A DNA stretch of 64,000 bases from an uncultured Nitrospirota bacterium. GTDB taxonomy: Bacteria; CG2-30-53-67. Location of the stretch: assembly GCA_964483105.1 (NCBI GenBank), contig CAYZZU010000012.1, forward strand, positions 10,275 through 74,274. Direction: 5' to 3'. The position numbers and the translations under genes were made by a program. Positions 28,642-50,728 of the stretch are shown here, piece after piece (the first letter of the stretch is position 1; each line of letters begins with the position of its first letter). Below the pieces are notes generated by a model, which saw only the letters and a program-made list of their open reading frames with translations, did not search any database and was not told the DNA's origin.

Positions 28642-28661
28642 TTCCCGTTTCTACCGGTGGT

Positions 28662-28922
28662 TCAATGAGATTGCAGGATACGGTCCAGTTCTCCGCGGTG
28701 CTCCAGGTTGTATAGTTCGTCGCAACCACCCACCGGGGATCCGCCGATCAGGATCTGGGGCACCGTGATTTTTCCGGTCAGACGGAACATTTCATCGGCG
28801 AGTTCCTGGTTTCCGGAGACGTCAACCTCTTCGTAGGCCACTCCCTTACGGTCCAGGAGTTGTTTCGCCCGGACGCAGTAGGGACACGTTGCGGTTGTAT
28901 AGATCTTCACGCGCACAGTCAT
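28662..28922 (-). CDS. grxC: glutaredoxin (GrxC-like)
   Basis: CPYC active site, 86 aa. Confidence 0.8.
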   Translation of the reverse strand: MTVRVKIYTTATCPYCVRAKQLLDRKGVAYEEVDVSGNQELADEMFRLTGKITVPQILIGGSPVGGCDELYNLEHRGELDRILQSH

Positions 28923-28961
28923 ATTGCGAAATTATAATACCCGGAGGTTCCCGGAGTCAAT

Positions 28962-30085: not shown

Positions 30086-30970
30086 ATGCGAAAGAAAGTG
30101 AGGAAGAAGCCGGTGCGAGGGGAAGAGGCTTCGGGGTGCCTGGTCCGGATGCGGGGGGTTCTGCCGTCCCTCCACAGGGCGGAGAAAAAAGTGGCGGACT
30201 ACATCCTGTCCCATGCGGGTGAGATCATGCATCTGACCGTCAGTGAGGTGGCCGTGGGCGCAGGCGCTTCGGAGGCCACGGTGGTCCGGTTCTGCAGGAC
30301 GCTGGGGTACCGGGGGTATCAAGATCTCAAACTCAGTCTGGTCCGGGAGTCTGCTCCCGCGGTGAAGAGCATCGATGCGGAGCTTTCGACCTCTGACGAT
30401 GTCTCCACGATCTGCCGGAAGGTCTTTCTGAACAATATCCGGACCCTGGAGGATACTCTGAAGATCCTGGATGTCGGAGAGGTGGAACGTGCCGCGGAAT
30501 GTCTTCTCAAGGCCCGCAAGGTGTTGCTGATCGGTGTGGGAACTTCCTCTCCCTACGTCTATGATGCCTACAACAAGCTCTTTCGGCTGGGGATCGAATG
30601 TGATTGGCAGACCGACAGTCATCTTCAGGTGATGGCGGCATCCCTTCTGAAACGGGGGGATGTGGTGCTGGCGATTTCTCATTCGGGGAGCACCAAAGAC
30701 CCGATTGAGACGGTCGGAATCGCGAAGAAGGCGGGAGCCGTGGCGATCTGCATTACCAACAACTCGCTGTCACCTCTGGCCCAGGCTGCGGATATCCGTC
30801 TGTATACGGCCTCCGGGGAGACCCACTACCGGGCTGAGGCGCTTTCTTCACGGATCGCCCAGGTGAGTATCATCGACGTCCTGCATATGATCCTGGCCCT
30901 CAGGAACACCCGGAGGACGCTTGCGAATATGAAGAAGATAGAGGAGGCAATCGTCATCAAACAATATTGA
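30086..30970 (+). CDS. MurR/RpiR family transcriptional regulator (HTH_6 + SIS)
   Basis: N-terminal HTH and a SIS sugar-phosphate-binding domain. First gene of the BMC locus. Confidence 0.8.
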   Translation: MRKKVRKKPVRGEEASGCLVRMRGVLPSLHRAEKKVADYILSHAGEIMHLTVSEVAVGAGASEATVVRFCRTLGYRGYQDLKLSLVRESAPAVKSIDAELSTSDDVSTICRKVFLNNIRTLEDTLKILDVGEVERAAECLLKARKVLLIGVGTSSPYVYDAYNKLFRLGIECDWQTDSHLQVMAASLLKRGDVVLAISHSGSTKDPIETVGIAKKAGAVAICITNNSLSPLAQAADIRLYTASGETHYRAEALSSRIAQVSIIDVLHMILALRNTRRTLANMKKIEEAIVIKQY

Positions 30971-30999
30971 CGGTTTCGTAAAAAGTCCATCCGCTGCCA

Positions 31000-31644
31000 A
31001 TGATCAGGGGGGCCGGTAGAATGATTGATCTTCGAACCTTTATTTTTATGGATAGCCTGCAGCCGCAGATTGCCTGCTTCATCGGTTCTTCGGCCAAGGG
31101 GTTTCTCCCGCTGTCCGGAGATGCCTCTCTCTTTGTGGAGATCGCGCCGGGGATTGCCATCAACAAGATTACCGATGTGGCCCTGAAGGCGACGCGCGTC
31201 CGTCCCGCTGTTCAGATCGTGGAGCGGGCCTTCGGGGTGCTGGAGGTGCATGCCGAATCTCAGGGGCAGGTGAGGAGGGCCGGGGAAGCCATTCTGAATG
31301 AGTTGGGGTTCCGCGAGGAGGACCGTTTCCGGCCGAAGATCGTTTCGACCCAGATTATCCGGAAGGTGGATGCTCATCAGGCGCAACTGATCAACCGGAA
31401 TCGGAGGGGATCGATGTTGATTCCGGATCAGACCCTTTTCGTGATGGAAACCTGGCCGGCCGGTTATGCCATCTATGCGGCCAACGAAGCGGAGAAGGCG
31501 GCCGAGATCACGATCGTGGAGGTCCGGCCCTTTGGTGCCTACGGACGGATCTATCTCGGTGGCGAAGAGGCCGATATCATGGTCGGAAGCGAGGCTGCGG
31601 TTCGAGCGGTGGAGGAAATATCGGGAACCGAAAAGGAACAATAA
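31000..31644 (+). CDS. BMC-T shell protein (tandem BMC domains, PduB/EutL-like)
   Basis: Two BMC-like segments ([30 protein letters not shown] and [42 protein letters not shown]). An alternative start at 31021 has a better SD. Confidence 0.55.
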
Positions 31645-31646
31645 TC

Positions 31647-31976
31647 ATGCCGCCGGACTCAGGGCGGCAAGCTGCGAAGGAGAGTGTGATGGCTGAGGCG
31701 TTGGGTATGATCGAAACAAAGGGGTTCGCCGCCATGGTGGAGGCCTCCGATGCGATGGTCAAGGCGGCCAAGGTGGAGTTGGTCAGCTACGAGAAGATCG
31801 GAGGCGGCTATGTGACGGCGATCGTACGCGGGGATGTGGCGGCGGTCAAGGCTGCCACCGAGGCGGGCGCGCGGGGCGCCGAAAGGGTCGGTGACCTGGT
31901 GGCGGTCCATGTGATTCCGAGACCGCATGAGAATATCGACCGCACCCTGCCTCTGGGGAGACAGTCTCAGGAGTAA
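31647..31976 (+). CDS. BMC-H shell protein (PduA/EutM-like, PF00936)
   Basis: [58 protein letters not shown] is the canonical BMC domain. Confidence 0.9.
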
Positions 31977-32091
31977 TCCCTGTCACGATGTCTGTAAGGG
32001 GGAGTGCGGGCCCCGCCGGGGCCGAAACGCGCCGTTCGGTCCGGAGCCGGAAACCGGTGAAATGGGAGGTCTTTTTGACCGGGGGGATGTG

Positions 32092-32385
32092 ATGTATTTC
32101 GGGAAGATCGTCGGAACGGTAGTCTCTACGCGGAAAGACAAGGGCCTTGTGGGATTGACCTTGTTCGTTGTGCGGCAGATGGATATGGAAGGGGGGTTTA
32201 CCGGGGCCTATGTTGTGGCCTCCGACTCCGTGGGTGCCGGTGTCGGCGAAGTGGTCCTCTATGCCACCGGGAGTTCGGCCCGGCAGACCGAGGACACCCG
32301 GGACCGGCCCAATGACGCCGTGATCATGGCCATTGTGGATACCTGGGAGGTCGGCGGTCGGACTATCTTCCAGAAGAACGAGTAA
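32092..32385 (+). CDS. BMC-P vertex protein (EutN/CcmL family), paralog 1
   Basis: [16 protein letters not shown]...[12 protein letters not shown] is the EutN/CcmL fold. Start taken at the ATG at 32092 within the longer ORF. Confidence 0.8.
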
Positions 32386-32397
32386 TTCGAGGGATTC

Positions 32398-33852
32398 ATG
32401 CAATGGACTGAAGACCGGATCGCCTCCCTGGTCGACCGGGTGATCATATCGCTGAAAGAAGAGGGGGTTCTTCCCGAGTCTGGGCGGCCGTCTCTCCCGT
32501 CCGGCGGGGAAATCGCCGATTCCGGGGTCGGAGTCTTCCCGGATATGGACACGGCCCTGAAGGCCGCGCAACAGGCCTTTGAGGAATTCAGCCGGATCCC
32601 GATCGAGGCCCGGAAGGGAATCATCCGGGCCATGCGGGAGGCGGCTCTCGGGGAGGCGGTCTCCCTCGCCGAACTGGCCCGGGAGGAGACCGGTCTGGGC
32701 AGGGCCTCCGACAAGGCGGAAAAGAACCGGCTGGTCGCCGAGAAGACCCCGGGGGTGGAGGAGTTGCTTCCGGAGGCTTGGTCCGGCGATCACGGTCTGA
32801 CCCTGACGGAGCGGGCCCCCTTCGGGGTGATCGGGGCCGTCACCCCGGTGACCAATCCCTCCTCCACCATCATCTGCAACAGCATCGGAATGGTGGCGGG
32901 AGGCAATGCCGTGGTGTTCAATCCACATCCCACGGCCCGCAGGACGTCGATCGCCACCCTCACACTCCTGAACCGGGCGATCGCCTCGGCGGGCGGGCCC
33001 GAAACGCTCCTCTGTACGGTGAGACAGCCTACGATCGAGACCGCGGTGGAGTTGATGCATCACCGGGGGATCCGCCTTCTTGTGGTGACCGGAGGTCCGG
33101 GTGTGGTCCGGGCGGCCTTGAACAGCGGGAAAAAAGTGATCGCCGCGGGCCCCGGAAATCCGCCGGTCGTGGTGGACGAAACCGCCGACCTGGCCCGGGC
33201 GGCGCGGGATATTGTTCAGGGGGGATCCTTCGACAACAACCTGGTCTGTATCCTGGAAAAGGTGATTATCGTGGTGGAAGAGGTTGCCGATGAACTGAAA
33301 CGGGAGCTTGGCCGTCATTATGCCGTGGAGGTCCGGGGATCTTCGGCGCGCCGGTTGATCAGGAGAATCATCGCCGAGACCCGGGGGCCGAGAAAACGCG
33401 GTATTCCCGACAAGGCGTTCGTGGGAAAGGATGCCGCCTGGATCCTGCAGGAAGTGCTGGACCGGGAGGTGGATCCGGAGACCCGGATGGTCGTGATCGA
33501 GGTCGACCGGGAGAACCCGCTCGTCTGGACGGAGCAATTGATGCCGGTTCTTCCCCTGGTCCGTGTTCCGAACGTGGAGGAGGCCATCGCCTTCGCGAAA
33601 GAGGTCGAAGAGGGGTGCGGACATACCGCGTCGATGCATTCGAGGAATATCGAAAACCTGAGCCGGATGGCCCGCATGATCAACACCTCGATCTTTGTGA
33701 AGAACGGCCCCACACTGGCCGGTTTGGGCTACGGGGGAGAGGGGTTCACCTCTTTTACCATTGCGAGTCCCACCGGTGAGGGGCTGACCTCGGCGATTCA
33801 TTTTACGCGGAAACGGCGTTGCGTGATCGTTGATTCCTTCCGGATCGTTTGA
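32398..33852 (+). CDS. CoA-acylating aldehyde dehydrogenase (PduP/EutE family) with N-terminal encapsulation-peptide-like helix
   Basis: ALDH fold with the FDNNLVC catalytic-Cys region. N-terminal amphipathic DRIASLVDRVIISLKEEG followed by a Pro/Gly-rich linker. Confidence 0.85.
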   Translation: MQWTEDRIASLVDRVIISLKEEGVLPESGRPSLPSGGEIADSGVGVFPDMDTALKAAQQAFEEFSRIPIEARKGIIRAMREAALGEAVSLAELAREETGLGRASDKAEKNRLVAEKTPGVEELLPEAWSGDHGLTLTERAPFGVIGAVTPVTNPSSTIICNSIGMVAGGNAVVFNPHPTARRTSIATLTLLNRAIASAGGPETLLCTVRQPTIETAVELMHHRGIRLLVVTGGPGVVRAALNSGKKVIAAGPGNPPVVVDETADLARAARDIVQGGSFDNNLVCILEKVIIVVEEVADELKRELGRHYAVEVRGSSARRLIRRIIAETRGPRKRGIPDKAFVGKDAAWILQEVLDREVDPETRMVVIEVDRENPLVWTEQLMPVLPLVRVPNVEEAIAFAKEVEEGCGHTASMHSRNIENLSRMARMINTSIFVKNGPTLAGLGYGGEGFTSFTIASPTGEGLTSAIHFTRKRRCVIVDSFRIV

Positions 33853-33879
33853 ACCGGGAGATCCGAAAGAGGCGTGTTG

Positions 33880-35196
33880 ATGAGTAGTCTGGTCGATCAG
33901 GTCCGGGATGCGGGAGTGGTCGGGGCCGGCGGCGCGGGATTTCCCACGCATGTCAAGATCTCCGGGAACGCGGGGGTTGTGATTGCCAATGGGGCCGAGT
34001 GCGAACCCCTGCTTCGGGTGGACCGGCAGATCATGGACCGGTACGCGGGAGATGTGGTCCGGGGACTTTTACGGGTGATGGAGGCCGTGGGGGCGGGGGA
34101 AGGGGTCATCGCCTTAAAAGAGAAGTACCGTCAGGCGACGGCGTCACTGGAGAAGGAGATCGCGGGGATTTCCGGGGTCCGGCTCCATCTCCTGGAAAAC
34201 TTCTATCCGGCGGGAGATGAACAGGTCCTGATACAACAGGTGACCGGGAAGGTGGTGCCGGAGGGGGGGATTCCTCTCGATGTCGGCGTCCTGGTCCAGA
34301 ATGTTGCGACACTGCGGAATATTGAATGGGCCGCGCGGGGCATCCCGGTCACGGAAAAGATCGTCACGGTGACCGGGGCGGTACCACGCCCCGCGACCGT
34401 CAGCGTTCCGATCGGGACCCCTGTTTCGGAATTGATCCGGGACCGCGGCGGGGCGGAACCGGAGAAGTTCGAGGTGATCCTGGGGGGACCGGTGATGGGG
34501 CGGCTTGCCGGCGTCGACGACACGATCGGCAAGACCACTGGAGCCGTGATTGTACTCCCCGCGGATCATCCGGTGGTGCTTTCCCGGAAAATCAATCTTT
34601 CGGTTCAGGTACGAAGGGCGCGGTCGGTCTGCGACCAGTGTCTCGCCTGCACGGAGAGGTGCCCCCGGTTCCTGCTTGGACACGAAATCGAGCCCCACCG
34701 GATGATGCGCGCCGTAATGCACGACCTGGAGACACCTACCGGGGCGATCACCCAGGCCTATCTCTGCTGCGGCTGTAGGCTCTGCGAGTATGCCTGTCCG
34801 GTTCTGCTTTCGCCGGTCAGTCTTTTCTCCGAGATCCGGAGGAGACTGGCGGAAAAAAAAGTGCTCAATCCACACCGCCGGAAGGACTGCGTTCCTCATG
34901 AATGGATGGAGATGCGCCGGGTTCCGGTGGACCGGCTGCTTCAATCCCTGCATCTTGAGGAATACGACCGGGAGGCACCGCTTTCGGAAGCGGGTTTTCA
35001 GCCCCGGCGGGTGTCGATTTCCCTTCAGCAGCACATCGGGGCTCCGGCCATCCCGGCGGTTGACGAGGGGGATCGCGTCCGGCGGGGGGACCGGATCGCC
35101 GAAATCCCGGAAGGGAGATTGGGGGCGACGCTTCATGCCTCCATCGATGGCACGGTGCGGCGGGTACGGGAACGGATTGTGATTGAGAAGGGGTAG
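33880..35196 (+). CDS. PduS/RnfC-like flavo-iron-sulfur protein (SLBB domain + two 4Fe-4S motifs)
   Basis: GAGGAGFPTHVK NADH/FMN-binding region, then CDQCLACTERCP and CCGCRLCEYACP ferredoxin motifs. GTG at 33874 is an alternative start. Confidence 0.7.
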   Translation: MSSLVDQVRDAGVVGAGGAGFPTHVKISGNAGVVIANGAECEPLLRVDRQIMDRYAGDVVRGLLRVMEAVGAGEGVIALKEKYRQATASLEKEIAGISGVRLHLLENFYPAGDEQVLIQQVTGKVVPEGGIPLDVGVLVQNVATLRNIEWAARGIPVTEKIVTVTGAVPRPATVSVPIGTPVSELIRDRGGAEPEKFEVILGGPVMGRLAGVDDTIGKTTGAVIVLPADHPVVLSRKINLSVQVRRARSVCDQCLACTERCPRFLLGHEIEPHRMMRAVMHDLETPTGAITQAYLCCGCRLCEYACPVLLSPVSLFSEIRRRLAEKKVLNPHRRKDCVPHEWMEMRRVPVDRLLQSLHLEEYDREAPLSEAGFQPRRVSISLQQHIGAPAIPAVDEGDRVRRGDRIAEIPEGRLGATLHASIDGTVRRVRERIVIEKG

Positions 35197-35234
35197 CCCT
35201 TCGGGAGCGGGAAGAGGGTCAAGGTGGAGGGAAG

Positions 35235-35798
35235 ATGAGTCCTGTTGGTTCGGAGCCTGCGCTCGGGCTCATTGAGTTTAACAGCATTGCCCAGGGGATT
35301 CATGCCTCGGACGAGATGATCAAGAAAGCTCCGATCCGGATGATTGAGAGCCGGACCGTCTGTCCGGGGAAGTATATCGCCCTGATTGTGGGTGATGAGG
35401 CCTCGGTAGAGGACTCCGTCCGGATCGGTCTGGAAGTGGGGGGACATTCGGTCGTGGATCAGCTCTTTCTTCCGAATCTCCATCCGCAGGTCACCCCGGC
35501 CATTACGGGGACCACGGAGATCTCCGGGATCATCGCCCTGGGGGTGATCGAGACCTTTTCCGTTGCCGGAGCCGTTCTCTCGGCCGACACAGCCGTCAAG
35601 GCGGCCGGGATCCGGCTGATCGAAATCCGTCTGGCCAACGGCCTCGGTGGTAAGTCCTTTTTCACATTGACCGGAGAGTTGCCTGACGTTCTCGCCGCCG
35701 TTGAGGCGGGAACCGGGATCATCCGGGAGGAGGGTCTCCTCGTGAACCAGGTGGTTTTGCCTAAACCGCATGGGGAGTTGACGAAGTTTCTGGTTTGA
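35235..35798 (+). CDS. BMC-T shell protein, PduT-like (tandem BMC domains, Cys at pore position)
   Basis: Two PF00936 repeats (ALGLIEFNSIAQG... and ALGVIETFSVAGAV...), 187 aa. Cys in RTVCPGKY is reminiscent of the PduT 4Fe-4S ligand. Confidence 0.75.
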   Translation: MSPVGSEPALGLIEFNSIAQGIHASDEMIKKAPIRMIESRTVCPGKYIALIVGDEASVEDSVRIGLEVGGHSVVDQLFLPNLHPQVTPAITGTTEISGIIALGVIETFSVAGAVLSADTAVKAAGIRLIEIRLANGLGGKSFFTLTGELPDVLAAVEAGTGIIREEGLLVNQVVLPKPHGELTKFLV

Positions 35799-35817
35799 GA
35801 ATCAGGAGTCGGGAGCC

Positions 35818-36126
35818 ATGTTCCTTGGCAGGGTGCTGGGCACCGTGGTGGCCACAATGAAGAGTGAGGGACTGGAGGGGGTGAAACTCCTGATCGTTCA
35901 GCCGCTGAATCACAATCTGGATCCGGTCCAAGAGCCGATCGTAGCGGCGGATTCAGTCCAGGCCGGTCCCGGGGAGCTGGTCTTTCTGGAAGACGGGCGG
36001 GAGGCCTCCCTCTGCCTTCCCGTACCTTTTGTCCCCGTGGATGCCTCGGTCATCGGTCATGTGGACCGCGTGAATCTTCCGGGAGGCGTGAGCCCGGCTC
36101 CGCGGGAGGGGGGGCAAAGATGCTGA
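35818..36126 (+). CDS. BMC-P vertex protein (EutN/CcmL family), paralog 2
   Basis: MFLGRVLGTVVATMKSEG...VAADSVQAG is the EutN/CcmL fold. Confidence 0.8.
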   Translation: MFLGRVLGTVVATMKSEGLEGVKLLIVQPLNHNLDPVQEPIVAADSVQAGPGELVFLEDGREASLCLPVPFVPVDASVIGHVDRVNLPGGVSPAPREGGQRC

Positions 36127-36416
36127 TCGGAAGGGTCATCGGGGATATTGTCTCCACGGTCTGCGACACCTCCTTTGAGGGGAAGAAGCTCCTTCTGATT
36201 CAACCTCTGGACCCGGAGGGCGGAGAGTACGGAGATTCCCTGGTTGCGGCCGATTCCGTGCAGGCCGGTCTGGGGGAGACGGTACTCCTCTTATGGGAGG
36301 GCTCCTCGGCCAGGCTCTGTTTCGGGATGGATTCGGCGCCGGTGCGTACCATGGTGGTCGGGGTCATCGATTCGGTGGATCTGGAACCGCTGGAATCCGC
36401 GCTTTCAGGGGAGTAG
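36120..36416 (+). CDS. BMC-P vertex protein (EutN/CcmL family), paralog 3
   Basis: MLIGRVIGDIVSTVCD...VAADSVQAG. Overlaps the previous gene by 7 nt. Confidence 0.8.
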   Translation: MLIGRVIGDIVSTVCDTSFEGKKLLLIQPLDPEGGEYGDSLVAADSVQAGLGETVLLLWEGSSARLCFGMDSAPVRTMVVGVIDSVDLEPLESALSGE

Positions 36417-36421
36417 GGGAT

Positions 36422-37246
36422 ATGGTTGAGCGGAGGAAAACGGAACGGGAATTAAGGCTGGAGATCGTGGAAATCTGCCGGCGGATGTACGAAAAGGATC
36501 TGGTGGCGGCCACGGATGGGAATGTGAGTGTGCGGCTCCGGAAGGACCGGATCCTGGCTACGCCGAGCGGGCTCCACAAGGGAATTCTGAAAGTGGAGGA
36601 CCTGATCGTTACCGACCTGCAGGGACGGAAATGTTCCGGTGAACACAGACCTTCGTCGGAGCTCAGGATGCATCTGAAGGTTTACAGGGAGCGTCCCGAT
36701 GTCTCGGCCGTGATCCACGCCCATCCGCCGGTCAGTACCGCCTTTACCATTGCCGGGGTCTCCCTGGCCCGGTGCATCCTGCCGGAGGTGGTCCTGACCA
36801 TGGGGGGGATTCCGACCACGCAGTATGCCATGCCGACCTCCGAGCAGGGGCCGGAGGTGATCGAGGAGTTTATCGGAAAATGTGACGCCATGCTGCTGGA
36901 CCGGCATGGAACCCTGACCGTGGGCGACTCGCTCCAGGCCGCCTTCCATAAGCTGGAGAAGGTGGAACATGCGGCGAAAATCACCTGGATGGCCCGCCAA
37001 CTGGGGCATGTCCGGACACTGGAACCGAAGGAGATCGGGGATCTGCTGGAAACCCGAGAACGACTTGGTTTAAAAGGCAGGATCTACCACTGTTCCGATT
37101 GCGGGGCCTGCGGAAAGAAGAGAAGGGATGGGAGCGACTGGTCACAGGAGGACCGGGAAAGGAAGAGAGTCGACGAAGAACGGCTGGTTTCCCTGATCCT
37201 GGACCGGGTGAAAAAGGTCCTTTCCCCGGCATCCGGTTCTTCATAA
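36422..37246 (+). CDS. class II aldolase/adducin family protein (fuculose/rhamnulose-1-phosphate aldolase-like) with C-terminal extension
   Basis: Aldolase_II core (HAHP metal-binding His) over ~215 aa. It has a ~60-aa tail with CSDCGACG and an amphipathic EERLVSLILDRVKKVL helix. SD GGGGAG precedes the ATG at 36422. Confidence 0.8.
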   Translation: MVERRKTERELRLEIVEICRRMYEKDLVAATDGNVSVRLRKDRILATPSGLHKGILKVEDLIVTDLQGRKCSGEHRPSSELRMHLKVYRERPDVSAVIHAHPPVSTAFTIAGVSLARCILPEVVLTMGGIPTTQYAMPTSEQGPEVIEEFIGKCDAMLLDRHGTLTVGDSLQAAFHKLEKVEHAAKITWMARQLGHVRTLEPKEIGDLLETRERLGLKGRIYHCSDCGACGKKRRDGSDWSQEDRERKRVDEERLVSLILDRVKKVLSPASGSS

Positions 37247-37594: not shown

Positions 37595-38485
37595 ATGCCC
37601 CGGATGGAAGCCGTGGACGCCAAACCTTTCCTGACGGAGTCGGAATTCACCGGTCTCGTCCGAATGATCTCCAAGCGTACCTCTGTTGATTTCCTCAATT
37701 ACAAAAAAAATTTTTTGAAAAGGCGGCTTCATCACCAACTGATGAAGTACCGTCTCTCCTCCTGGGAAGAGTATTCCGAGCTGCTGGCGGAGGGAAGGAT
37801 CGGTTCTCCGGAATTGATCAACGATTTTACGATTCACGTGACCCGCTTCTTTCGCGACCCCGCTCTCTTTGAGTATCTGAACAAACGGGTTTTCCGGCGT
37901 CTCTGGAAGCGACACCTGGCCCGGGGTGACCGGGAATTCCGGATCTGGGTCATGGGGTGTTCGACCGGAGAAGAGGCTTACTCCGTAGCCATTTCGCTCC
38001 TGGAGGCCGTCCGTCCGGATCTCACGCGGGATCCCATCCGTATTTTCGCCACCGATCTGGATGAAAAGGCGATTGAATATGCCCGGCGCGGAGAATATGG
38101 GTCCCAGTGGATATCGGGAGTGAAACCGGAGTTGAGAAAGAGGTATTTCCTTCCCGGATCCAGGGGGAAGGTGGTTCCCCGACTGCGTCGCATGATCCTT
38201 TTCGGCCGGCATGATCTCCTGAGGAATCCCTCGATTCTTCACCTGGATATGGTTTTTTGCAGGAATGTCCTGATCTTTCTGGATCGTTCGATACAGCATT
38301 CGCTCTATATGAAGTTTTATGATTCATTGAAGCCCGGTGGGATCCTGGTGATGGGGAGGGCCGAGTCTCCGACCCCCCATTCCCGTCAGGGAAGGTTCGA
38401 GCCCCTCTCTCTGGCGAACCGTGTTTTCAGAAAACAGGAGGTCCGTACTGATCCGGAGGGGCGAAGAGAGGGGAAAAAACCGTGA
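37595..38485 (+). CDS. cheR: CheR-type protein-glutamate O-methyltransferase
   Basis: CheR N-terminal helical domain plus SAM-binding motif (WVMGCSTGEEAYS). Start chosen at the ATG with SD GGAGGAGG. Stop overlaps the start of the downstream kinase (ATGA). Confidence 0.75.
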   Translation: MPRMEAVDAKPFLTESEFTGLVRMISKRTSVDFLNYKKNFLKRRLHHQLMKYRLSSWEEYSELLAEGRIGSPELINDFTIHVTRFFRDPALFEYLNKRVFRRLWKRHLARGDREFRIWVMGCSTGEEAYSVAISLLEAVRPDLTRDPIRIFATDLDEKAIEYARRGEYGSQWISGVKPELRKRYFLPGSRGKVVPRLRRMILFGRHDLLRNPSILHLDMVFCRNVLIFLDRSIQHSLYMKFYDSLKPGGILVMGRAESPTPHSRQGRFEPLSLANRVFRKQEVRTDPEGRREGKKP

Positions 38486-41400
38486 AGATCCGGAACAAGG
38501 TGATGCTGGGGCTGCTTATTGTCGGGGCAATTCTTTTTGCGAGCTCCCTGGTAGGGATTCACTATTTCCAGGAGGAAAACCGTGCCGACCTGCGACACAG
38601 AGTATACGGGCTGAAACTGGAGAGGGCTCAGGCGCTACACCGTTCCATCGACCGGGCGCTCAGAGCGGTTCACCGTTATTTCATCCTGGGCGACCTCAAG
38701 GGAAAACAACAGTTTTTCAAGTCCTACCGGGAGTTTTCCTCCAGGCTTCGGGGGATTCAGGGGGAGTTGCCCGAGGTGGAGGGGCGGCCCCTTCTGAGAG
38801 AGACCGCGGAGCGGATCCGGAATACCGCGGAGCGGTTTTTCCGGATTGCGAATCCCGTGGAGAGTCCCGAGGCGAAACAGGCCGTGGAGCGGATCGACGC
38901 GCTTACCGGGCAGGTGGACCGGCTCCTGGACGGAATGGCCGCACGATGGCAGGAACAGAAAGAAAAGGCCGTCGAGGCGGAAGCGGTGATGCACCGGCGG
39001 CTTTTTGACTCGATCTGTCTTCTGATTCTTTTCCTGGTCTCCGGGGGGTTCTTCAGCGTTTTTTATTTTTCCAGGCTCATTTCAGGGCCTTTCCGTGACC
39101 TGATGCGCTCGGCTCAGGAAATCGGGAATGGGGATTTCTCCCGGCGTCTGGATGATCAACGGAAGGATGAGTTCGGAATCATGAACCGGACCTTCAATCT
39201 CATGCTGGATGCCGTGGAAGAGAGGGAAAGCGCCCTGCGCGAGAAAAACCGGGCACTGAACGCGGCGATCGAAGAGCTGGCGCGGACGAACGAAAGGATG
39301 CAGCTCAACAACGAAGAACTGGAGTCGACCAATGAGGAACTCCAGATCTCCAGCGAAGAGCTCGAGTCGGCGAACGAAGAGCTGAACCTCTCCAACCAGG
39401 AACTGGAGGTTAAAACGCGTGAACTGATCGAGACACGGGATTTGCTCCAAAAAAAGAATGAGGAGATCAAGAGGGGACATGACTTTCTCGAGACGGTCAT
39501 TAATTCCACCAATAGCGGGATCTGCGTGATCCGGCCTGATTTTACGATCGAGTCCGCAAACCGTGCGATTCAGAAGATGACCGGCTACACCGGGTCGGAG
39601 CTGATCGGTTCATTTTGCTATGAAATGTTCCAGGGAAGATCCGAACCCTGCAGCGATTGTCCGGCGCGAAAGGTCTTTACCGGCGGGGGTGTCCAGAGGG
39701 AACACCATTGCCACGTCACAAAGGACGGACGGGAGATCATCAGTGACATGACCGCCACGCCCCTGTTCGGAAAGGAAGGTCAGGTGGAGAGGGTCATCGA
39801 GACCCTGAACGATGTCACGGAGGTGGTTCACCTGACTCATGCCCTTTCGGAACAGAAGGAGCGGATGCGCTCGATCCTCATGAACATGGGGGAAGGGGTT
39901 TCCGTGATCAATCGTGCCCATGAGATTGAGTTTATCAACGATACCCTGCGGAAACGTTTCGGGGAGATTGAAGGTCAGAAGTGTTACAAGGCCTTTCGGG
40001 GATTGGCGCGCCCCTGTAACGGCAAGGAACCCTGTTCCCTGGTAGAGATCCTGGAGAAGGGACGAAAGCTCTTCGAGGTGACTAAACGGAACGAGGACGG
40101 CCGTTACTATCGTATGACGTCGGTTCCGCTTGCCAATCCGGACGGAACGACCTCCATGATACAGATCCGTCAGGATGTGACCGATGAGAAAAGGCTCGAG
40201 GAGGAGCGGCGGCGATATACGGAGCAACTGGAAGAGCTGAACCGGAGGATGGAAAAGGAGGTTGAAAAAAGGACGCAGGAACTCCTGGATGCCAACACGG
40301 AATTGAGGCTGGCCAATGAACGGCTCCGTGAGGTGAACCGGGAGAAATCCGAATTTATCGATATCGCCGTGCACGATCTCAGGACCCCCTTGACTTCCAT
40401 TGTGAGTTATGCCGATCTTCTGCGGAAATACAAGGATGAACCCGAGGAAACCCGCATGGAGTTCCTCGGGATTATTATCCAGGAGAGTTTCCGGATGACC
40501 CGTCTGATCAATGATTACCTGGACCTCTCCAAGCTTGAATCCGGTTACGTGGATTTCAAGGAAGAAAACGTGGATATGCATGCCCTGCTGGAACAGGTCT
40601 TTCAAACCTTCCAGGTCAGGGCGGACAAGAAACGGGTCCGCCTCGACCTCCGGGTTCCCTCTTCGTTGCCCCGGTTTGTGGGTGATGCCGAGAGACTCAA
40701 GCAGGTCTTTACCAACCTGATCGACAACGCGATCAAGTACACGCCCGCCGGTGGAGAAATCTCCGTGCAAGGGGAGGTAATGGAGAGGCCGGCACGCTTC
40801 CGGTTTACGGTCCGGGACAACGGGATCGGCATTGATGAACAGGGGCAGAAGGTACTCTTCAAGAAATTCGGACGGATCCGGGACCGGAAAATGAAAAAAC
40901 ACCAGGGAAGCGGGCTGGGACTCTCCATCGTCAAGACCATCGTGGAACATTATCGTGGAACGATTCATGTAGAGAGCGGGAAAGGGGAAGGCGCCGCCTT
41001 TTTGATCACGCTGCCCTTGAATCGCGAATCCTTTCAGGTGCGACACGCAAGTTCGGTTGACTCCTCCACGTCGGAGCTGGTCCGCCAGATCGTTCCGATC
41101 TCCCGGGAATATCTGGATCGGAATTTTCTCTGCGCATTCTTCGGCGCGTCACTGGACATCGATCAGATCAAGAAGGCGCTTGCCGGTGAGGGCGTCCCGG
41201 TTTATGATTTCATGGAGAAGGAGCAGTTGATTTTCAGTTCGGCGCGGATCCCTCTGTTTTCCAGGGGAAGATTTGACGGGAATCATCTTTTTGAACGCGT
41301 ACGGAATTTCTATGACCGGGTGGTCCAGTCGGAATGGGAGGGGCTCCTGGTAGTGCGGGATATGACACGACTGTTTTCCGAGAACAAGGTGAGTCGGGAC

Positions 41401-41592
41401 ATTCTGTATTTCGAAAAGAAGCTGGAAGCCTATCTGAGCCGTTTTTCAAAACCGGTGATTCAGATCTGCCATTACGATCCTGTTCCTTTTCCGGAGCCGG
41501 AAATGGAAGGTCTGGAGAAGATCCATCCTTTTCAGTTATTGCACGGGAAGATCGTGCCGCGGAATCATGGCGGGAACCGGCATGGATCATAG
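38482..41592 (+). CDS. multidomain sensor histidine kinase (TM sensor-HAMP-coiled coil-PAS x2/3-HisKA-HATPase-C-terminal MEDS-like domain)
   Basis: Two TM helices flank a ~170-aa periplasmic helical sensor. HAMP, an EELES(T/A)NEEL heptad-repeat coiled coil, PAS domains, H-box HDLRTPL and HATPase N/G boxes. The C-terminal ~280 aa resemble a MEDS domain. Confidence 0.7.
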   Translation: MKIRNKVMLGLLIVGAILFASSLVGIHYFQEENRADLRHRVYGLKLERAQALHRSIDRALRAVHRYFILGDLKGKQQFFKSYREFSSRLRGIQGELPEVEGRPLLRETAERIRNTAERFFRIANPVESPEAKQAVERIDALTGQVDRLLDGMAARWQEQKEKAVEAEAVMHRRLFDSICLLILFLVSGGFFSVFYFSRLISGPFRDLMRSAQEIGNGDFSRRLDDQRKDEFGIMNRTFNLMLDAVEERESALREKNRALNAAIEELARTNERMQLNNEELESTNEELQISSEELESANEELNLSNQELEVKTRELIETRDLLQKKNEEIKRGHDFLETVINSTNSGICVIRPDFTIESANRAIQKMTGYTGSELIGSFCYEMFQGRSEPCSDCPARKVFTGGGVQREHHCHVTKDGREIISDMTATPLFGKEGQVERVIETLNDVTEVVHLTHALSEQKERMRSILMNMGEGVSVINRAHEIEFINDTLRKRFGEIEGQKCYKAFRGLARPCNGKEPCSLVEILEKGRKLFEVTKRNEDGRYYRMTSVPLANPDGTTSMIQIRQDVTDEKRLEEERRRYTEQLEELNRRMEKEVEKRTQELLDANTELRLANERLREVNREKSEFIDIAVHDLRTPLTSIVSYADLLRKYKDEPEETRMEFLGIIIQESFRMTRLINDYLDLSKLESGYVDFKEENVDMHALLEQVFQTFQVRADKKRVRLDLRVPSSLPRFVGDAERLKQVFTNLIDNAIKYTPAGGEISVQGEVMERPARFRFTVRDNGIGIDEQGQKVLFKKFGRIRDRKMKKHQGSGLGLSIVKTIVEHYRGTIHVESGKGEGAAFLITLPLNRESFQVRHASSVDSSTSELVRQIVPISREYLDRNFLCAFFGASLDIDQIKKALAGEGVPVYDFMEKEQLIFSSARIPLFSRGRFDGNHLFERVRNFYDRVVQSEWEGLLVVRDMTRLFSENKVSRDILYFEKKLEAYLSRFSKPVIQICHYDPVPFPEPEMEGLEKIHPFQLLHGKIVPRNHGGNRHGS

Positions 41593-41652
41593 GATCCTCC
41601 AGTCCAGCCGGTTTGACTCGTTTCATGAATCGGGCGGGGTCCGGGGGGTCCT

Positions 41653-43041
41653 ATGAAACCGAAACTTCTGATCGTGGATGACGATGAAGAGATCCTCAAG
41701 CAGCTCAAGTGGGCCTTCAAGGAGGACTTCTCCATCTTCCTGGCCACCGACCGGGAGGCTGCGATTCAGTCCTTTCAACGGCACAGCCCGGATCTTGTCG
41801 CTCTGGATCTCGGACTCTCACCGCACATGGGGGGGGGGAGTGACGATGAAGGGATTGAAATCCTGCGCATGGTTCTGAAACAGGAACCCCTCACCAAGGT
41901 GATCATGATCACGGGGAACGAAATGCGGGAATACGCGATCCGGTCGATTCAGATGGGGGCCTTTGATTATTACTCCAAGCCGATCGATCTGGAAGAATTA
42001 CGCTTCATTCTGAAGCGGGCTCTCCATATCCAGGGACTTGAAAAAGAAAATCTCAGATTGCGAAAGGAGGTTCTCCAGAAGGAACAGTTTGCCGGGATGA
42101 TCGGATGGTCTCCCGCCATCCAGGAAGTCTATCAACAGATCGAAGGGGTGGCCGAAAGCAACGTGACGGTCCTGATCGAAGGGGAGAGTGGAACCGGCAA
42201 GGAACTGGCGGCCAGAGCGGTTCATGAGAGGAGCGGGCGCAGGAAAGCCCCCTTCGTGGTAATCAATTGTGGAGCGATCCCGGAAAACCTTCTGGAGTCC
42301 GAGCTCTTCGGTCATGAAAAGGGGGCCTTTACCGGCGCCGCCGCCACAAAGATCGGGAAATTCGAACAGGCGGACCGGGGGACCCTCTTTCTGGACGAGA
42401 TCGGGGAACTTCCCCTGCAGCTTCAGGTGAAGCTTCTCCGTTTTCTGCAGGACCATCAGATTGAACGGATCGGGGGGCGGCATCCGGTCAAGATCGATGT
42501 CCGGGTTATCGCCGCGACCAACCGCTCCCTGGAGGAAGAAGTGGAAGCGGGACGGTTTCGCAAGGATCTCTATTTCCGGTTGAATGTGGTCCGGATTCAT
42601 CTGCCTCGTCTCAAGGACCGGATCGGGGATCCGATCCTTCTGGCATATTATTTTCTGGACCTGTACCGTGGGGAACTGCAAAGCAAGGTCAATGGTTTCA
42701 CCGCCGAGGCGGAGCTTTCCATCAAGACCGCGGAGTGGGAGGGAAATATCCGGGAACTGGAGAACAGGGTTCGCAAGGCCTTGATCGTTGCGCGCGGACC
42801 CCTGATCACGGAAGTGGATCTGGATCTTGACTATAAAGAAAATGCCGTCCCGCTTTCTCTCAAGGAGGCCCGGGAGGAACTGGACAGGAAGTATATCCAC
42901 CTCGCCCTCCGGAACAACCACGGAAATATCAGCCAGGCCGCCAGGGAACTTGGAATCAGCCGGGTCAGCCTCCATGATCTGATCCGGAAGTATGGAATCA
43001 GGGTGAGGCATGGGGAGAGCAATCAGGAAAGGGGGGTGTAG
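41653..43041 (+). CDS. sigma-54-dependent Fis-family response regulator
   Basis: REC (with a Gly-rich insertion), AAA+ GESGTGKE, GAFTGA and a C-terminal HTH. Confidence 0.8.
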   Translation: MKPKLLIVDDDEEILKQLKWAFKEDFSIFLATDREAAIQSFQRHSPDLVALDLGLSPHMGGGSDDEGIEILRMVLKQEPLTKVIMITGNEMREYAIRSIQMGAFDYYSKPIDLEELRFILKRALHIQGLEKENLRLRKEVLQKEQFAGMIGWSPAIQEVYQQIEGVAESNVTVLIEGESGTGKELAARAVHERSGRRKAPFVVINCGAIPENLLESELFGHEKGAFTGAAATKIGKFEQADRGTLFLDEIGELPLQLQVKLLRFLQDHQIERIGGRHPVKIDVRVIAATNRSLEEEVEAGRFRKDLYFRLNVVRIHLPRLKDRIGDPILLAYYFLDLYRGELQSKVNGFTAEAELSIKTAEWEGNIRELENRVRKALIVARGPLITEVDLDLDYKENAVPLSLKEAREELDRKYIHLALRNNHGNISQAARELGISRVSLHDLIRKYGIRVRHGESNQERGV

Positions 43042-43320
43042 GTTTCCTTTACACACCTAACTGGTTGAATTATTACGAAAAATACTTAATTTGGCATATA
43101 ATCTTCGAAATTGTGTCGGATTTCTTTACATTTCATGATCCGACAGCTCTTGCCCTTTACGGTTTTTCTCTTTCCCTTCTGTGAAAAATAACGATAAATA
43201 TCATGAGGTTGGAAGTATGGTCGAATAAGATGGTATGAAAATTGCTGTTTCTCCACTTCGAGGACAAAACGTTCAGTGAAATGGAAGATTCTAATGTGTT
43301 ATCCTGAAAGAGGTGGCGAA

Positions 43321-43959
43321 ATGTTCAAAAAAGCAATCCTGTTCATGATGATCCTGGGATTTGGGTATCTCCTTCCCGCGTCGAATCTTTATGCCTCTCC
43401 GGTGTTGGGGTATGTGAATCCGGGGTACGGGGATGTCGATCCGGGTTATCAGGCCGCTCACCCGGGTTATCATTACGACCTCGGGAGTTCCACGACCGGC
43501 CTGGCTCTTTACACCTTCGAGAATGTCGCTCCCGGTGCGGGAGAGAACATGGTCGCCCTGTCCCTGGGGTTTGAATCGGATGTATTTGATCTCGCGCTTA
43601 CCGCTCCGGTTGCGGGAAGTGCGAATCCCGGCTGGTCCCTGGACTGGGTCGGGTTCGGACCGGACAAGGCGATCCTTTCCTGGAATTCACCGGGCCTGCC
43701 GGAGGGGGAGCAGCTTTCTTTTCTGGTGGACTATACGCTCCAGGATGACGCCATCAGCCTGGATGACGCGGGAGCCTGGGATGAAGCATCCTCGACGCCT
43801 GGATACTGGCAACAGGGCTTCGGGGTCCGTTATGGGAATGGAATGATCGGAGGAGGTTCCACCGCGCCCGTACCCGAACCCGGGACCTTGCTCCTGCTCG
43901 GCGTCAGCATGGTCAGTTTCGCAGCCTATGGAAGAAAGCGGTTGAACCGATCGAAGTGA
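43321..43959 (+). CDS. PEP-CTERM sorting domain-containing secreted protein
   Basis: Signal peptide, PGY-rich repeats and a C-terminal VPEPGTLLLLG...RKR PEP-CTERM anchor. SD GAGGTGG before the ATG at 43321. Confidence 0.7.
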   Translation: MFKKAILFMMILGFGYLLPASNLYASPVLGYVNPGYGDVDPGYQAAHPGYHYDLGSSTTGLALYTFENVAPGAGENMVALSLGFESDVFDLALTAPVAGSANPGWSLDWVGFGPDKAILSWNSPGLPEGEQLSFLVDYTLQDDAISLDDAGAWDEASSTPGYWQQGFGVRYGNGMIGGGSTAPVPEPGTLLLLGVSMVSFAAYGRKRLNRSK

Positions 43960-44006: not shown

Positions 44007-44036
44007 GGCGCCCGTTTTTATCGGGGCGCCTTTTTT
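44007..44036. terminator. bidirectional rho-independent terminator
   Basis: AAAAAA-GGCGCCCG-tttttat-CGGGGCGCC-TTTTTT, between the convergent PEP-CTERM and TPR-lipoprotein genes. Confidence 0.65.
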
Positions 44037-46231
44037 GGTGCGTGGCTGAGTCTGGAGAGAAGCAGCCTGCATCTTTCAATTCCGGGGAAGTCCTTCCCCG
44101 GCTTCAGGGCTTTTTGAAAATATCTCTTTGCCTCTTTGAGACGGCCCGATTCCAGAGTGACCTCCCCTAAATGATAATGCAGGATCGGCATGCCGGGCTT
44201 CAGGGTGATGGCTTTCTTCAGGGTGTTTTCAGCCTTTTCCGGTTCTTTGGACTTGAATTGGATCCAGCCCAGGGTATCCAGAAAAGGAGCGGCACCGGGG
44301 TGGAGTTTCGCCGCCTTTTCGGCGAGTTGTTTCGCCCGGGTCAGGTCGTTCCCCTCGTTTGCGTAGAGCCATGCCAGGTTGTTCAGGGCGAATCCGTTTT
44401 CGGGATGCAGGTCCAGGATTTTCTGATACTGCTTCATGGCGGGAAGGATCGCCCCGGTTCGCTCATAGAGAACGGCCAGTTCGAAGCGGACCCGTTCCAC
44501 GTCCGGCAGCCGTTCCGGATGGCGAGCTTTCAGCAGCGCCGTCTCGTAATCCCTGACGGCAAGGGGAAGCGCCCCCCGCGTGGCGTAGAACCGCCCCCGG
44601 TAGAGGTAGGGCTCCGTCCTGTCCGGCATCGCGTGAATCGCCCGGTTGTAACATGCTTCGGCAAGTTTTTCCTTCCTCGATCGAATTAAAATCTCCGCCT
44701 TGTTGAGATAAGGGGCCAGAAACGCGGGGTTTGCCGTGATCGACCGGTTAAAAAAATCGATGGCCTGGTTCCCTTTCCCTTCTCCGGCCAGGGCCTCTCC
44801 GGTCAGGTTCAGAAGAAGGGCATTATCCGGCCACAACTTCAGGGCAACGCGGGCCTCGGCCAGGGCGTGCTGGAATTTTTTTTGAATCAGATAACTCAGG
44901 ATCAGTCGGATCCTGGTCCCGATTCGGTCCGGATCGATCCGGATCGAGATGCGATACTCCTGGATCGCCTTTTCAATTTCTCCCAGCGATCCGTAATAGC
45001 CGGCGATGTTTTCGTGGGTCAGACGGGAATTCGGATCGATCCGGAGGGCCGCCCGGTATTTTTCAAGCGCATCGTCCGGATGTCCTGTCTTCAGATAGAT
45101 CATGCCGAGCAGATTCAGGGCAAGGGGGTCCTCCGGCCGGCTCTTCGCGGCTCTTTCCAGATAACGGGTGGCTTCTTTGTCGTAATTCAGGATCAGGGCC
45201 GAGACGCCGGCGATCAGGTTGGCTCCCGCATGATTTGGTGATTTTTCAACGACTCTCCGGGCCATGGAGAAGGCCTGCTGCGTTTGATGCTGGCGAAAGT
45301 AGGCCTGCGCTAAAAGCAGGTAGGGCAGAGCCGTATCCGGTTTTCCTCTTATGGCGAGAAGCAGTTCACTGACGGCGGCCTGGCCGTTCTTTAATCCGAG
45401 GTAGGCTGCGCCTGTGATCAGGTGGGCCCGGGCCGACCCGGGGGAGAGGGACAGGGCTTTTTCTCCTTCGGAAAGGGCCTGTTTGAACCTCCCCAGGCGA
45501 ACCAGAAGTTCTCCTAAAAGAAGGTGCCCTTCGGTCAGGCCGGGATTTCTCTCCAGGGTGGACTGCATCAGGTTCGCAGCCGCTTCGAGCTTTCCCTGCC
45601 GGCTTTGGATCCGGGCGATGTAGAGGGGGATCGAGCTGTCACCGGGGGATAGCTTCCGGGCCTTCCGGAAGGCTGCGAGGGCCTTTCCCATCTGTTTCCG
45701 CGTAAGGTAGAGCTTCCCCATGGAGACAACAGCGGGATGGAAGTTAGGGTCCAGGTCCAGCGCTTTCTGGAACCGGGCGAGGGCTCCCTGGAAATCCTTT
45801 CTGGCCGCGCGGAGGTTGCCCAGAAGGAGATAGAGTCTGGGATCATCCTTGCGTCGGCTGAGGCAGACCGCTCCCTCACGGTCCGCATATTTCAGGTCAT
45901 TGAGGAAATAGGCGGTTTCGGCTGCCGACAGGTGAAGATCGTAACTGTCCATTCCGTATTTCAATGCCGTTTCATATTCGCTCTGAGCGGTGTTGTATGT
46001 TGTTCCCAAACTGTAGGCTTTTCCCAGAAGGTAATGGGCCTCACCGCTTCCGGGGATCAGGCGTACCAGATTTTTGAATTCCACGACAGCTCCCTGAGAA
46101 TTTCCCTGTTCCAGATAGGCGAGTCCCTGTGTGCGATGGCGGTTGATCTTCTGCTCTCTGGTTTCGCACGCGGAGAGAATGAGCAGCAGGGAAAGGATGC
46201 AGGAAAGGTAGAAAAGCCGTTTGCCGGGCAT
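44018..46231 (-). CDS. TPR-repeat lipoprotein (737 aa)
   Basis: Lipobox LILSAC, more than 15 TPR motifs. Possibly PrsT-like given the PEP-CTERM neighbour. Confidence 0.7.
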   Translation of the reverse strand: MPGKRLFYLSCILSLLLILSACETREQKINRHRTQGLAYLEQGNSQGAVVEFKNLVRLIPGSGEAHYLLGKAYSLGTTYNTAQSEYETALKYGMDSYDLHLSAAETAYFLNDLKYADREGAVCLSRRKDDPRLYLLLGNLRAARKDFQGALARFQKALDLDPNFHPAVVSMGKLYLTRKQMGKALAAFRKARKLSPGDSSIPLYIARIQSRQGKLEAAANLMQSTLERNPGLTEGHLLLGELLVRLGRFKQALSEGEKALSLSPGSARAHLITGAAYLGLKNGQAAVSELLLAIRGKPDTALPYLLLAQAYFRQHQTQQAFSMARRVVEKSPNHAGANLIAGVSALILNYDKEATRYLERAAKSRPEDPLALNLLGMIYLKTGHPDDALEKYRAALRIDPNSRLTHENIAGYYGSLGEIEKAIQEYRISIRIDPDRIGTRIRLILSYLIQKKFQHALAEARVALKLWPDNALLLNLTGEALAGEGKGNQAIDFFNRSITANPAFLAPYLNKAEILIRSRKEKLAEACYNRAIHAMPDRTEPYLYRGRFYATRGALPLAVRDYETALLKARHPERLPDVERVRFELAVLYERTGAILPAMKQYQKILDLHPENGFALNNLAWLYANEGNDLTRAKQLAEKAAKLHPGAAPFLDTLGWIQFKSKEPEKAENTLKKAITLKPGMPILHYHLGEVTLESGRLKEAKRYFQKALKPGKDFPGIERCRLLLSRLSHAPKKAPR

Positions 46232-47565: not shown

Positions 47566-47598
47566 AGCCGGCTATGGTTCGGTGGATGGACGGCTGAA

Positions 47599-48174: not shown

Positions 48175-48450
48175 CTAAAAGGGGTCTCCACGCAGAGGGA
48201 CAGTGTAAGGTCCCAAACTTCATCGTTTCTTCCGAAAAAAACAAGATATGCAATATTCTTCTGAAAATCAATCGTTTTTCAACGTGGACTTTTAATCCGG
48301 GCTACTATATACTTTGAATCCCGCCGTAGCCGTCCAGTCCAGGTTCCTGTTCCGAAAATTTCATTATGGAATGCGGCAAGGATTCTGACGGGAGGCGCGC
48401 GGCGCTCCGGGCGGCGTGTAAGCGGAAGGCATCATACGGCGGACGGATTT

Positions 48451-50715: not shown

Positions 50716-50728
50716 AAGGATATTCGAG

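Follow-up and report, generated by a model that had tools for sequence, protein, structure and literature searches.

A cheR gene overlapping the gene for a MEDS-tailed histidine kinase, next to prsR and a PEP-CTERM gene, in an uncultured Nitrospirota bacterium

Genes for PEP-CTERM proteins can be preceded by a "PEP-CTERM box", a 17-nt motif ending in TTTACA (motif 1), sometimes repeated, and then a sigma-54 site (Haft et al. 2006, PMC1569441). The published site lies at a mean of 71 nt from the start codon, with a spacer of 63 ± 11 nt between motif 1 and the promoter, and the kinase gene prsK was found directly upstream of the response regulator gene prsR in 12 of 13 genomes (PMC1569441). The PrsK/PrsR/PrsT module has been linked to floc formation in Aquincola (PMC9850573). 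Here we analyse 64,000 nucleotides ("the window") of an uncultured Nitrospirota bacterium (GCA_964483105.1, contig CAYZZU010000012.1, positions 10,275 to 74,274), in which prsR is preceded by a cheR gene and, overlapping it, the gene for a large sensor histidine kinase.

This gene pair can be compared with several other described proteins. In Salmonella, CheR methylates an EE/ED pair of PhoP, a two-component protein that is not a receptor (PMC8546571). The MEDS domain, which terminates the window kinase, is known from DcmR and from archaeal kinases such as M. acetivorans MA2082 (PMC5847659, PMC11784639). CheR also occurs fused to PAS kinases annotated as [quoted passage not shown]; a literature search found no paper characterising these fusion kinases. 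The window locus thus combines known kinds of components, namely a CheR-associated PAS kinase with a coiled coil of the NEEL type, a MEDS domain, and PrsR, PrsT and the PEP-CTERM box. Their arrangement is rare: CheR is split off, CheB is missing, MEDS is C-terminal, and the pair stands in the prsK slot. The coordinates of all features are given in Table 1.

The overlapping cheR and kinase genes

The cheR product matches the Pfam methyltransferase domain PF01739 (161.9 bits, cut-off 27) and the CheR_N domain PF03705 (34.3 bits, cut-off 27). Its FFRD, CSTGEEAYS, ATDLD and CRNVLIF segments align with the Bacillus subtilis CheR of known structure (5FTW). We take motifs of the FFRD, CSTGEE and CRNV types to be those of S-adenosylmethionine (SAM) binding and of the active site; they are intact in the window protein, as in the CheR enzymes that serve methyl-accepting chemotaxis proteins (MCPs). 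A GGAGG Shine-Dalgarno sequence lies 11 nt 5' of cheR. At the other end of the gene, its stop codon and the kinase start codon share the four nucleotides GTGA (ccGTGAag). The GTG start of the kinase is supported by its orthologues, which begin with MKIRTK at the equivalent position.

Loci of this type are scarce. In 185,579 species representatives just two of them were detected, and a search of 5.8 billion clusters returned full-length relatives of the kinase in only seven other clusters, at about 52% identity and all with MEDS. The resulting alignment comprises eight full-length orthologues (about 52% identical overall). A 45-aa hypothetical protein of Bacillus cereus (WP_002198457.1) falls into the cluster formed around the window kinase itself at 90% identity (P0001), probably through a clustering artefact. 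In all nine relative loci (grouped as L002/L003, L004, L005/L013, L009/L093/L094 and L012) cheR is directly upstream of the kinase gene, and the 4-nt overlap is kept in most of them, including L004, L005 and L009. Near none of the nine is there a prsR, PEP-CTERM or prsT gene or a BMC (bacterial microcompartment) locus. The recurrence of the pair in every relative found supports the view that this CheR is dedicated to the neighbouring kinase. No MCP, CheA, CheW or CheB domain was detected in any open reading frame (ORF) of at least 150 aa in the window, and no chemoreceptor or Che protein was seen in the relatives' loci either. The chemotaxis CheR equivalog NF007902 is matched with 115.7 bits, below its cut-off of 435. 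With the CheR domains of the fusion kinases the window protein reaches a median of 152 bits and a maximum of 173, with the solved chemotaxis CheRs 98-107 bits; by these scores it is nearer to the former.

The kinase shares with chemoreceptors such as Tar and Tsr of Escherichia coli the order transmembrane segment (TM), helical periplasmic domain, TM, HAMP, followed by a Glu-Glu-rich heptad helix with small flanking residues. Its hydrophobic segments are TM1 (aa ~5-29) and TM2 (aa ~174-197), and the stretch between them is modelled by AlphaFold2 as four helices (pLDDT 73-85, aa 20-190); this periplasmic domain is strongly diverged among the orthologues. The full-length model (pLDDT 58.8) is too poor for judging domain packing. 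Unlike MCPs, the window kinase has no MCPsignal domain (no PF00015 match at E ≤ 0.1) and no CheA or CheW, its output being an intrinsic histidine kinase. Its helix is a single run, presumably forming a parallel dimer, rather than an antiparallel hairpin bundle. The two PAS domains each carry an invariant cysteine triad, C379/C390/C393 (aa 379-393, 39616-39660) together with H409 in the first, and C501/C512/C518 (aa 501-518, 39982-40035) in the second. With the neighbouring glutaredoxin gene, and rubrerythrin in relatives, these triads suggest that a metal or a thiol-redox state may serve as the input; when the PAS pair was compared with PDB sequences, only weak generic PAS/LOV matches and no metal-binding precedent were obtained. 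The dimerization and phosphotransfer (DHp) segment is near-identical across all orthologues.

The C-terminal extension past HATPase_c (about 189 aa) contains a MEDS domain (PF14417, 61.9 bits against a cut-off of 29.8), aligned to profile positions 2-161 of 161. Like the MEDS proteins described before, which belong to the same Pfam family, it has a RecA/KaiC-like alpha/beta fold without an active P-loop, the P-loop lysine being absent, and so fits the "iKaiC" label of PMC5847659. Its position is different, being C-terminal to the ATPase. An exhaustive search of 1.84 billion representatives returned 91 proteins matching MEDS, with the domain N-terminal in 88 and C-terminal in three; the MEDS domain by itself, used in a word-index search for homologues, gave no match. 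A C-terminal MEDS was found only in the window-kinase family and in two GAF-HisKA-HATPase-MEDS kinases (P0246 and P0297), which have GAF sensors and no NEEL motif. Because these two kinases share the block of DHp, catalytic domain (CA) and MEDS, and the DHp of P0246 is near-identical to that of the window kinase, the DHp-CA-MEDS block is a separate module that does not depend on CheR. As the same block occurs there with GAF sensors and no NEEL motif, MEDS is less likely to be a docking site of the separate CheR. Its position suggests a role in output or in partner binding, not in sensing.

The segment that most closely ties the kinase to CheR is the NEEL coiled coil. The repeat is nearly invariant across the orthologues despite their overall divergence, with much stronger conservation of its EE pairs than of the sequence around them. 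A NEEL-type motif also stands 3' of CheR in the CheB/CheR-PAS-kinase fusions. Among the best 120 kinase matches, every one of the 64 CheR-containing kinases carries the repeat about 210 aa past CheR, and the motif occurs without a CheR domain in 13 proteins, made up of eight members of the window-kinase family, two fragments and three others. A genome scan seeded on the NEEL motif, not on CheR, found a CheR 490-680 nt upstream on the same strand at 60 of 71 NEEL loci; the remaining 11 consist of eight loci cut by contig ends, two weak coiled-coil matches and one clean exception (L015), so that CheR accompanies the repeat at 60 of about 61 evaluable loci. Within the window repeat the short methylation-like pattern EExx[AS][AST] is observed three times against 0.21 expected.

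The window kinase and the fusion kinases thus have in common a NEEL-type coiled coil followed by PAS and HisKA/HATPase domains, as well as their similar CheR. They differ in that the window CheR is a separate, translationally coupled gene, in that the window kinase has neither CheB nor PAS_10 (no Pfam match to either), in that it is bound to the membrane with a periplasmic domain and HAMP, and in that it ends in MEDS instead of REC. From the NEEL-CheR association and the CheR scores against the fusion kinases, we conclude that the split pair and the fusions share one unit of CheR plus NEEL-PAS-kinase. Given its near-exclusive link to CheR, the NEEL coiled coil is, as we predict with moderate confidence, the segment most likely to be methylated by this CheR.

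Much of this had been anticipated in a preliminary description of the same DNA. The four genes it named (cheR, kinase, sigma-54 activator and PEP-CTERM gene) are real and lie on the + strand; the peptide strings it quoted are present in the kinase; the lack of MCP, CheA, CheW and CheB nearby and the kinship of the linker with that of the CheB/CheR-PAS-kinase fusions are borne out. Its 1036-aa kinase stands as to the helical periplasmic part, HAMP, coiled coil and HisKA/HATPase core, with two PAS domains in place of "several". The gene overlap, given there as ATGA, reads GTGA. The MEDS assignment was right, in an extension shorter than the ~280 aa proposed, and calling this domain "sensory" is doubtful in view of its inactivated RecA/KaiC-like fold and atypical position.

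PrsR, the PEP-CTERM box and the PEP-CTERM gene

The sigma-54 activator encoded after the kinase scores 558.8 bits with the PrsR model TIGR02915 (equivalog cut-off 502.6), and is therefore assigned as PrsR. The convergent gene beyond the PEP-CTERM gene encodes PrsT (TIGR02917, 341.9 bits, cut-off 312.2). As in the published PrsK/PrsR/PrsT systems, the PEP-CTERM gene is a unit of one gene and is preceded by two copies of motif 1, both ending in TTTACA, and by a predicted sigma-54 site, whose end is 74 nt 5' of the ATG (published mean 71). This site is the sole match to TGGYAYN5TTGCW on both strands of the 64 kb (0.09 expected); the preliminary description had proposed to look for sigma-54 promoters upstream of this gene. 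A relaxed scan allowing two mismatches gave 35 matches against 39 expected and was uninformative; the stricter pattern alone is specific. Box elements also precede the PEP-CTERM genes beside prsR in L011, L099, L097 and L098: copy 1 of motif 1 is conserved in L011, TGTCGGnnTTnTTTACA recurs 5' of the PEP-CTERM genes in L099, L097 and L098, and equivalent sigma-54 sites are present in L011, L099 and L098. The spacer between motif 1 and the promoter is about 100 nt in the window, longer than the published one.

Upstream of the PEP-CTERM gene lies a long intergenic region. The gene product matches PF07589 (24.6 bits, cut-off 20.7) as well as TIGR02595. The most likely start is the ATG at 43321 rather than the GTG at 43276, because of the signal peptide and the ribosome-binding site; the same start is called in L001. 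Orthologues 42-44% identical lie beside prsR in L011, and a gene with a PEP-CTERM tail is found at the equivalent position in L099. The window differs from the published systems in having no exosortase gene: tblastn with the exosortase and EpsI of L011 gave nothing in the 64 kb, and Pfam scans of the large ORFs of the window gave no exosortase family. In the relatives L011 and L098 an exosortase gene lies beside prsR.

The other difference concerns the kinase. In the canonical loci L097 and L098, prsK encodes a kinase with seven TM segments and a GAF domain and lies immediately upstream of prsR; the window kinase is a CheR-coupled protein of HAMP, coiled coil, PAS, kinase core and MEDS, and the prsR genes of close relatives have no adjacent kinase at all. 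We rejected the possibility that the window kinase is a divergent PrsK, since it has two TM segments, HAMP and PAS instead of a multi-TM/GAF sensor and its core matches the PrsK proteins of L097 and L098 with 61 bits only.

Substrate of CheR and partner of the kinase

As a whole, we favour as the best model, tentatively, a pathway from a CheR-tuned kinase through PrsR to the PEP-CTERM gene. A periplasmic and/or PAS input, possibly thiol or redox, would be passed by HAMP to the coiled coil. CheR would methylate exposed Glu pairs of this heptad coiled coil, between HAMP and the PAS/DHp modules, and methylation would set the output level of the kinase, in the manner of the methylation helices of chemoreceptors. 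The methyl mark would be slow to reverse, since no CheB is encoded nearby. The kinase would probably phosphorylate PrsR, because the pair occupies the prsK slot: it lies 60 nt 5' of prsR on the same strand, no terminator-like site was detected in the gap, and the native upstream DNA is lost. Once phosphorylated, PrsR would occupy the two TTTACA motifs and switch on transcription of the adjacent PEP-CTERM (exosortase-cargo) gene from its sigma-54 promoter. As in the case of CheR and PhoP of Salmonella (PMC8546571), the target of CheR would be neighbouring acidic residues in a two-component protein that lies outside chemotaxis; there a chemotaxis CheR moonlights on a response regulator, whereas here CheR would be dedicated to a kinase, its predicted substrate.

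The step from the kinase to PrsR faces a number of contrary observations. The closest PrsR orthologues (72-74% identity) occur in three arrangements: RACo, then prsR-panC-maf (L010); exosortase/EpsI/epimerase(-), then prsR, PEP-CTERM gene, prsT(-), panC and maf(-) (L011); and the order of L011 continued by NtrY-NtrX-NMO (L099-101), which is collinear with the window from 41653 to ~53274. In none of these three independent relatives is prsR preceded by a kinase gene. The window genome is the only one in which kinase and prsR are seen to adjoin, the DHp is identical in genomes without an adjacent prsR, and one metagenome-assembled genome holds the kinase (NOY52600.1) and PrsR (NOY53521.1) unlinked, on different contigs. 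The kinase core matches the PrsK of L097 and L098 less well than it matches the kinases of PilS and NtrY type encoded in the window, TIGR02916 (PrsK) is not among its best 25 NCBIfam matches, and a prsK may lie elsewhere in the genome. The conserved neighbour of the kinase is another response regulator, a zinc-ribbon-REC protein considered below. The preliminary description had joined kinase, activator and PEP-CTERM protein in one pathway, a reading that is borne out in part; as to neighbourhood, the cheR-kinase pair is conserved in all relatives and the link from kinase to activator to PEP-CTERM gene is not. Since the relatives' prsR has no kinase and homology between the window and their prsR upstream DNA begins only at the start codon, the junction is a derived rearrangement. 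By it, a kinase that appears to be an orphan came to stand in the slot of prsK beside a likewise apparently orphan prsR, whose native upstream region was removed. By gene-neighbourhood logic, the junction suggests, without proving, a functional link between the kinase and PrsR. An element resembling TTTGTGCAATAATC, just 5' of prsR in L010 (9950-10000) and L011 (10010-10045) and missing in the window, may be the native prsR promoter or operator. Residues of alpha1 in the PrsR REC domain differ between lineages with and without PrsK, a difference inseparable from plain divergence.

The true partner of the kinase might instead be the zinc-ribbon-REC regulator, the prsR junction being incidental and PrsR being fed by another kinase; the Cys-bearing PAS domains would then read a thiol/redox stress circuit. 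This regulator is encoded with a metallo-beta-lactamase (MBL)-fold hydrolase and a glutaredoxin in a companion operon that is directly divergent from cheR in L004, L005/L013, L009/L093/L094 and L012, and that in the window is still within 9 kb of cheR with only the BMC locus between. Across the relatives the regulator is 70-72% identical and keeps its acidic pocket (DD...D...K) intact; the DHp of the kinase does not vary between genomes with and without an adjacent prsR, and the PAS cysteine triads are invariant while rubrerythrin and glutaredoxin neighbour the pair in relatives. On the other hand, L002/L003 lack the REC gene although they keep cheR-kinase, the MBL-fold hydrolase and glutaredoxin, and L092 has the companion operon and no cheR-kinase within 9 kb; moreover the REC gene is on the opposite strand, never in one operon with the kinase, and such a partnership leaves unexplained why the kinase came to lie 60 nt 5' of an orphan prsR that has lost its own 5' DNA. 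We consider this explanation doubtful, somewhat below the PrsR pathway in probability, and note that the two regulators are compatible as partners of one kinase, not mutually exclusive.

As to the methylation step, CheR could act on another substrate, such as a response regulator, MEDS or chemoreceptors encoded elsewhere, with NEEL serving as a dimeric signalling linker or docking helix inherited with the PAS-kinase from the fusion kinases. PhoP provides the precedent for a substrate that is not a receptor (PMC8546571). The strict ten-residue methylation consensus of chemoreceptors has no match in the window kinase, and the same DHp-CA-MEDS occurs in P0246 and P0297 with GAF sensors and no NEEL. 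NEEL linkers without a nearby CheR also exist: P0015 and P0019 (the three other proteins mentioned above include P0028 as well) have the motif and no cheR nearby, and so does L015, with a REC-HD partner. Judging from P0015, P0019 and L015, the motif can exist as a plain linker. Yet the NEEL-CheR link is near-exclusive in both the fused and the split architecture, the EE pairs are conserved well beyond the surrounding sequence, the repeat of L015, the closest CheR-less relative with HAMP, is shorter and degenerate, and chemoreceptors and Che proteins are absent from the 64 kb and from every relative's locus; another substrate is accordingly unlikely. Far less probable still is a cluster without common function, whose cheR would belong to a complete chemotaxis system elsewhere and whose adjacencies would be fortuitous. 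The data are those of one contig of the genome, and the match of CheR to its equivalog model falls short of the cut-off, so that a special role is not proven by it, but the conservation of the overlapping gene pair in every relative at about 50% identity makes this very unlikely, and the window CheR groups with the CheR domains of the fusion kinases.

P0019, a 1351-aa PAS kinase with a NEEL-like coiled coil (L008, 1-5099), is encoded directly 3' of two KaiB genes; the NEEL linker is found there in an unrelated use, beside clock-type proteins.

Genomic surroundings and significance

The companion operon was not mentioned in the preliminary description, which had placed the cheR-kinase genes immediately downstream of the BMC locus. 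This locus encodes an RpiR regulator, BMC-T, BMC-H, three EutN/CcmL proteins and an acylating aldehyde dehydrogenase (Pfam), further an RnfC/Nuo51-like flavoprotein and a class II aldolase, and has a GC content of 0.62-0.63 against 0.55-0.56 in its flanks. Since the companion operon and cheR adjoin in the relatives, where the BMC locus is absent, it has been inserted between them, and is probably a mobile or acquired island. We rejected it as a functional neighbour: it is absent from all relatives and splits two conserved units that are otherwise adjacent. Lying 3' of the zinc-ribbon-REC gene, a 645-aa ORF (26279-28216, -) has no Pfam match and has a counterpart 35% identical in L002 (3993-5117).

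Table 1. Features of the cheR-kinase, prsR and companion loci (positions in the window)
Feature	Position	Strand	Description	Basis
cheR	37595..38485	+	296 aa, CheR-family SAM-dependent protein-glutamate methyltransferase	Pfam, motif alignment
Sensor histidine kinase	38482..41592	+	1036 aa, GTG start inside cheR stop	Pfam, orthologue alignment
HAMP	39067..39219	+	aa 196-246	Pfam, 51.7 bits
NEEL heptad coiled coil	39268..39477	+	aa 263-332, ten heptads xEELxxx; proposed methyl-accepting segment	
Two PAS domains	39502..40191	+	aa 341-449 and ~465-570	PAS_4 and PAS_9, two stretches each
HisKA and HATPase_c core	40345..41022	+	aa 622-688 (H631) and aa 734-847	Pfam, 62.5 and 104.3 bits
MEDS domain	41044..41529	+	aa 855-1016, inactivated RecA/KaiC-like fold	PF14417
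prsR	41653..43041	+	PEP-CTERM-box response regulator: REC, sigma-54 AAA+, Fis HTH	TIGR02915, Pfam
PEP-CTERM box motif 1, copy 1	43037..43053	+	TGTAGGTTTCCTTTACA; presumed PrsR binding site	
PEP-CTERM box motif 1, copy 2	43114..43130	+	TGTCGGATTTCTTTACA	
Sigma-54 promoter (-24/-12)	43231..43246	+	TGGTATGAAAATTGCT; predicted	Pattern match
PEP-CTERM surface-protein gene	43321..43959	+	212 aa, signal peptide MFKKAILF..., C-terminal VPEPGT-TM-RKR	
prsT	44018..46231	-	737 aa, XrtA/PEP-CTERM system TPR protein	TIGR02917
Companion operon of cheR-kinase	28060..29735	-	MBL-fold hydrolase, glutaredoxin, zinc-ribbon-REC	
MBL-fold hydrolase	28962-29735	-	58% identity to relatives' gene	tblastn
Glutaredoxin	28662-28922	-	63% identity to relatives' gene	tblastn
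Zinc-ribbon-REC response regulator	28060-28641	-	193 aa, N-terminal four-Cys zinc ribbon; 72% identity to relatives' gene	tblastn
BMC locus	30086..37246	+	rpiR to class II aldolase; insertion, outside the system	

On the other side, the stretch 46720-53274 holds panC, maf(-), an NtrY-like kinase, an NtrX-like sigma-54 regulator and NMO(-), collinear with L099-101. The window has three sigma-54-dependent response regulators: one PilR-like (3459-4841, -), PrsR, and the NtrX-like one (50729-52093). The first belongs to a PilS/PilR pair located with type IV pilus genes (PilC-, PilT- and PilB-like; 3459-10937, -). A Bat/MoxR "aerotolerance" operon (MoxR AAA, DUF58, BatA/B VWA, TPR, BatD) occupies 14899-22818 (-), and an ATP sulfurylase gene at 5-1189 suggests a sulfate reducer.

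A wider and more speculative reading, which as a whole we consider rather improbable, takes NEEL as a portable methyl-accepting module, and the widespread fusions and the split pair together as "methyl-accepting histidine kinases", two-component sensors with covalent adaptation or memory in the style of chemotaxis. In the lineage of the window the pair may then have taken over from PrsK the control of exosortase cargo, with the inactivated KaiC-like MEDS as an output or partner-binding domain and not a sensor; there being no CheB, the conserved neighbouring MBL-fold hydrolase may provide the reset instead.

Should CheR indeed methylate the coiled coil, receptor-style methylation would also tune two-component systems that control transcription, and the large class of CheB/CheR-kinase fusions would gain a testable mechanism. 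The locus offers a simple test system, in which CheR is a protein of its own, the kinase is single, CheB is lacking and the PrsR-dependent sigma-54 promoter of the PEP-CTERM gene would be the read-out. It also bears on an open point of the original PEP-CTERM paper, namely which signal feeds PrsR: the prsR genes of this lineage lack a neighbouring prsK, whose slot is taken in the window by another kinase.

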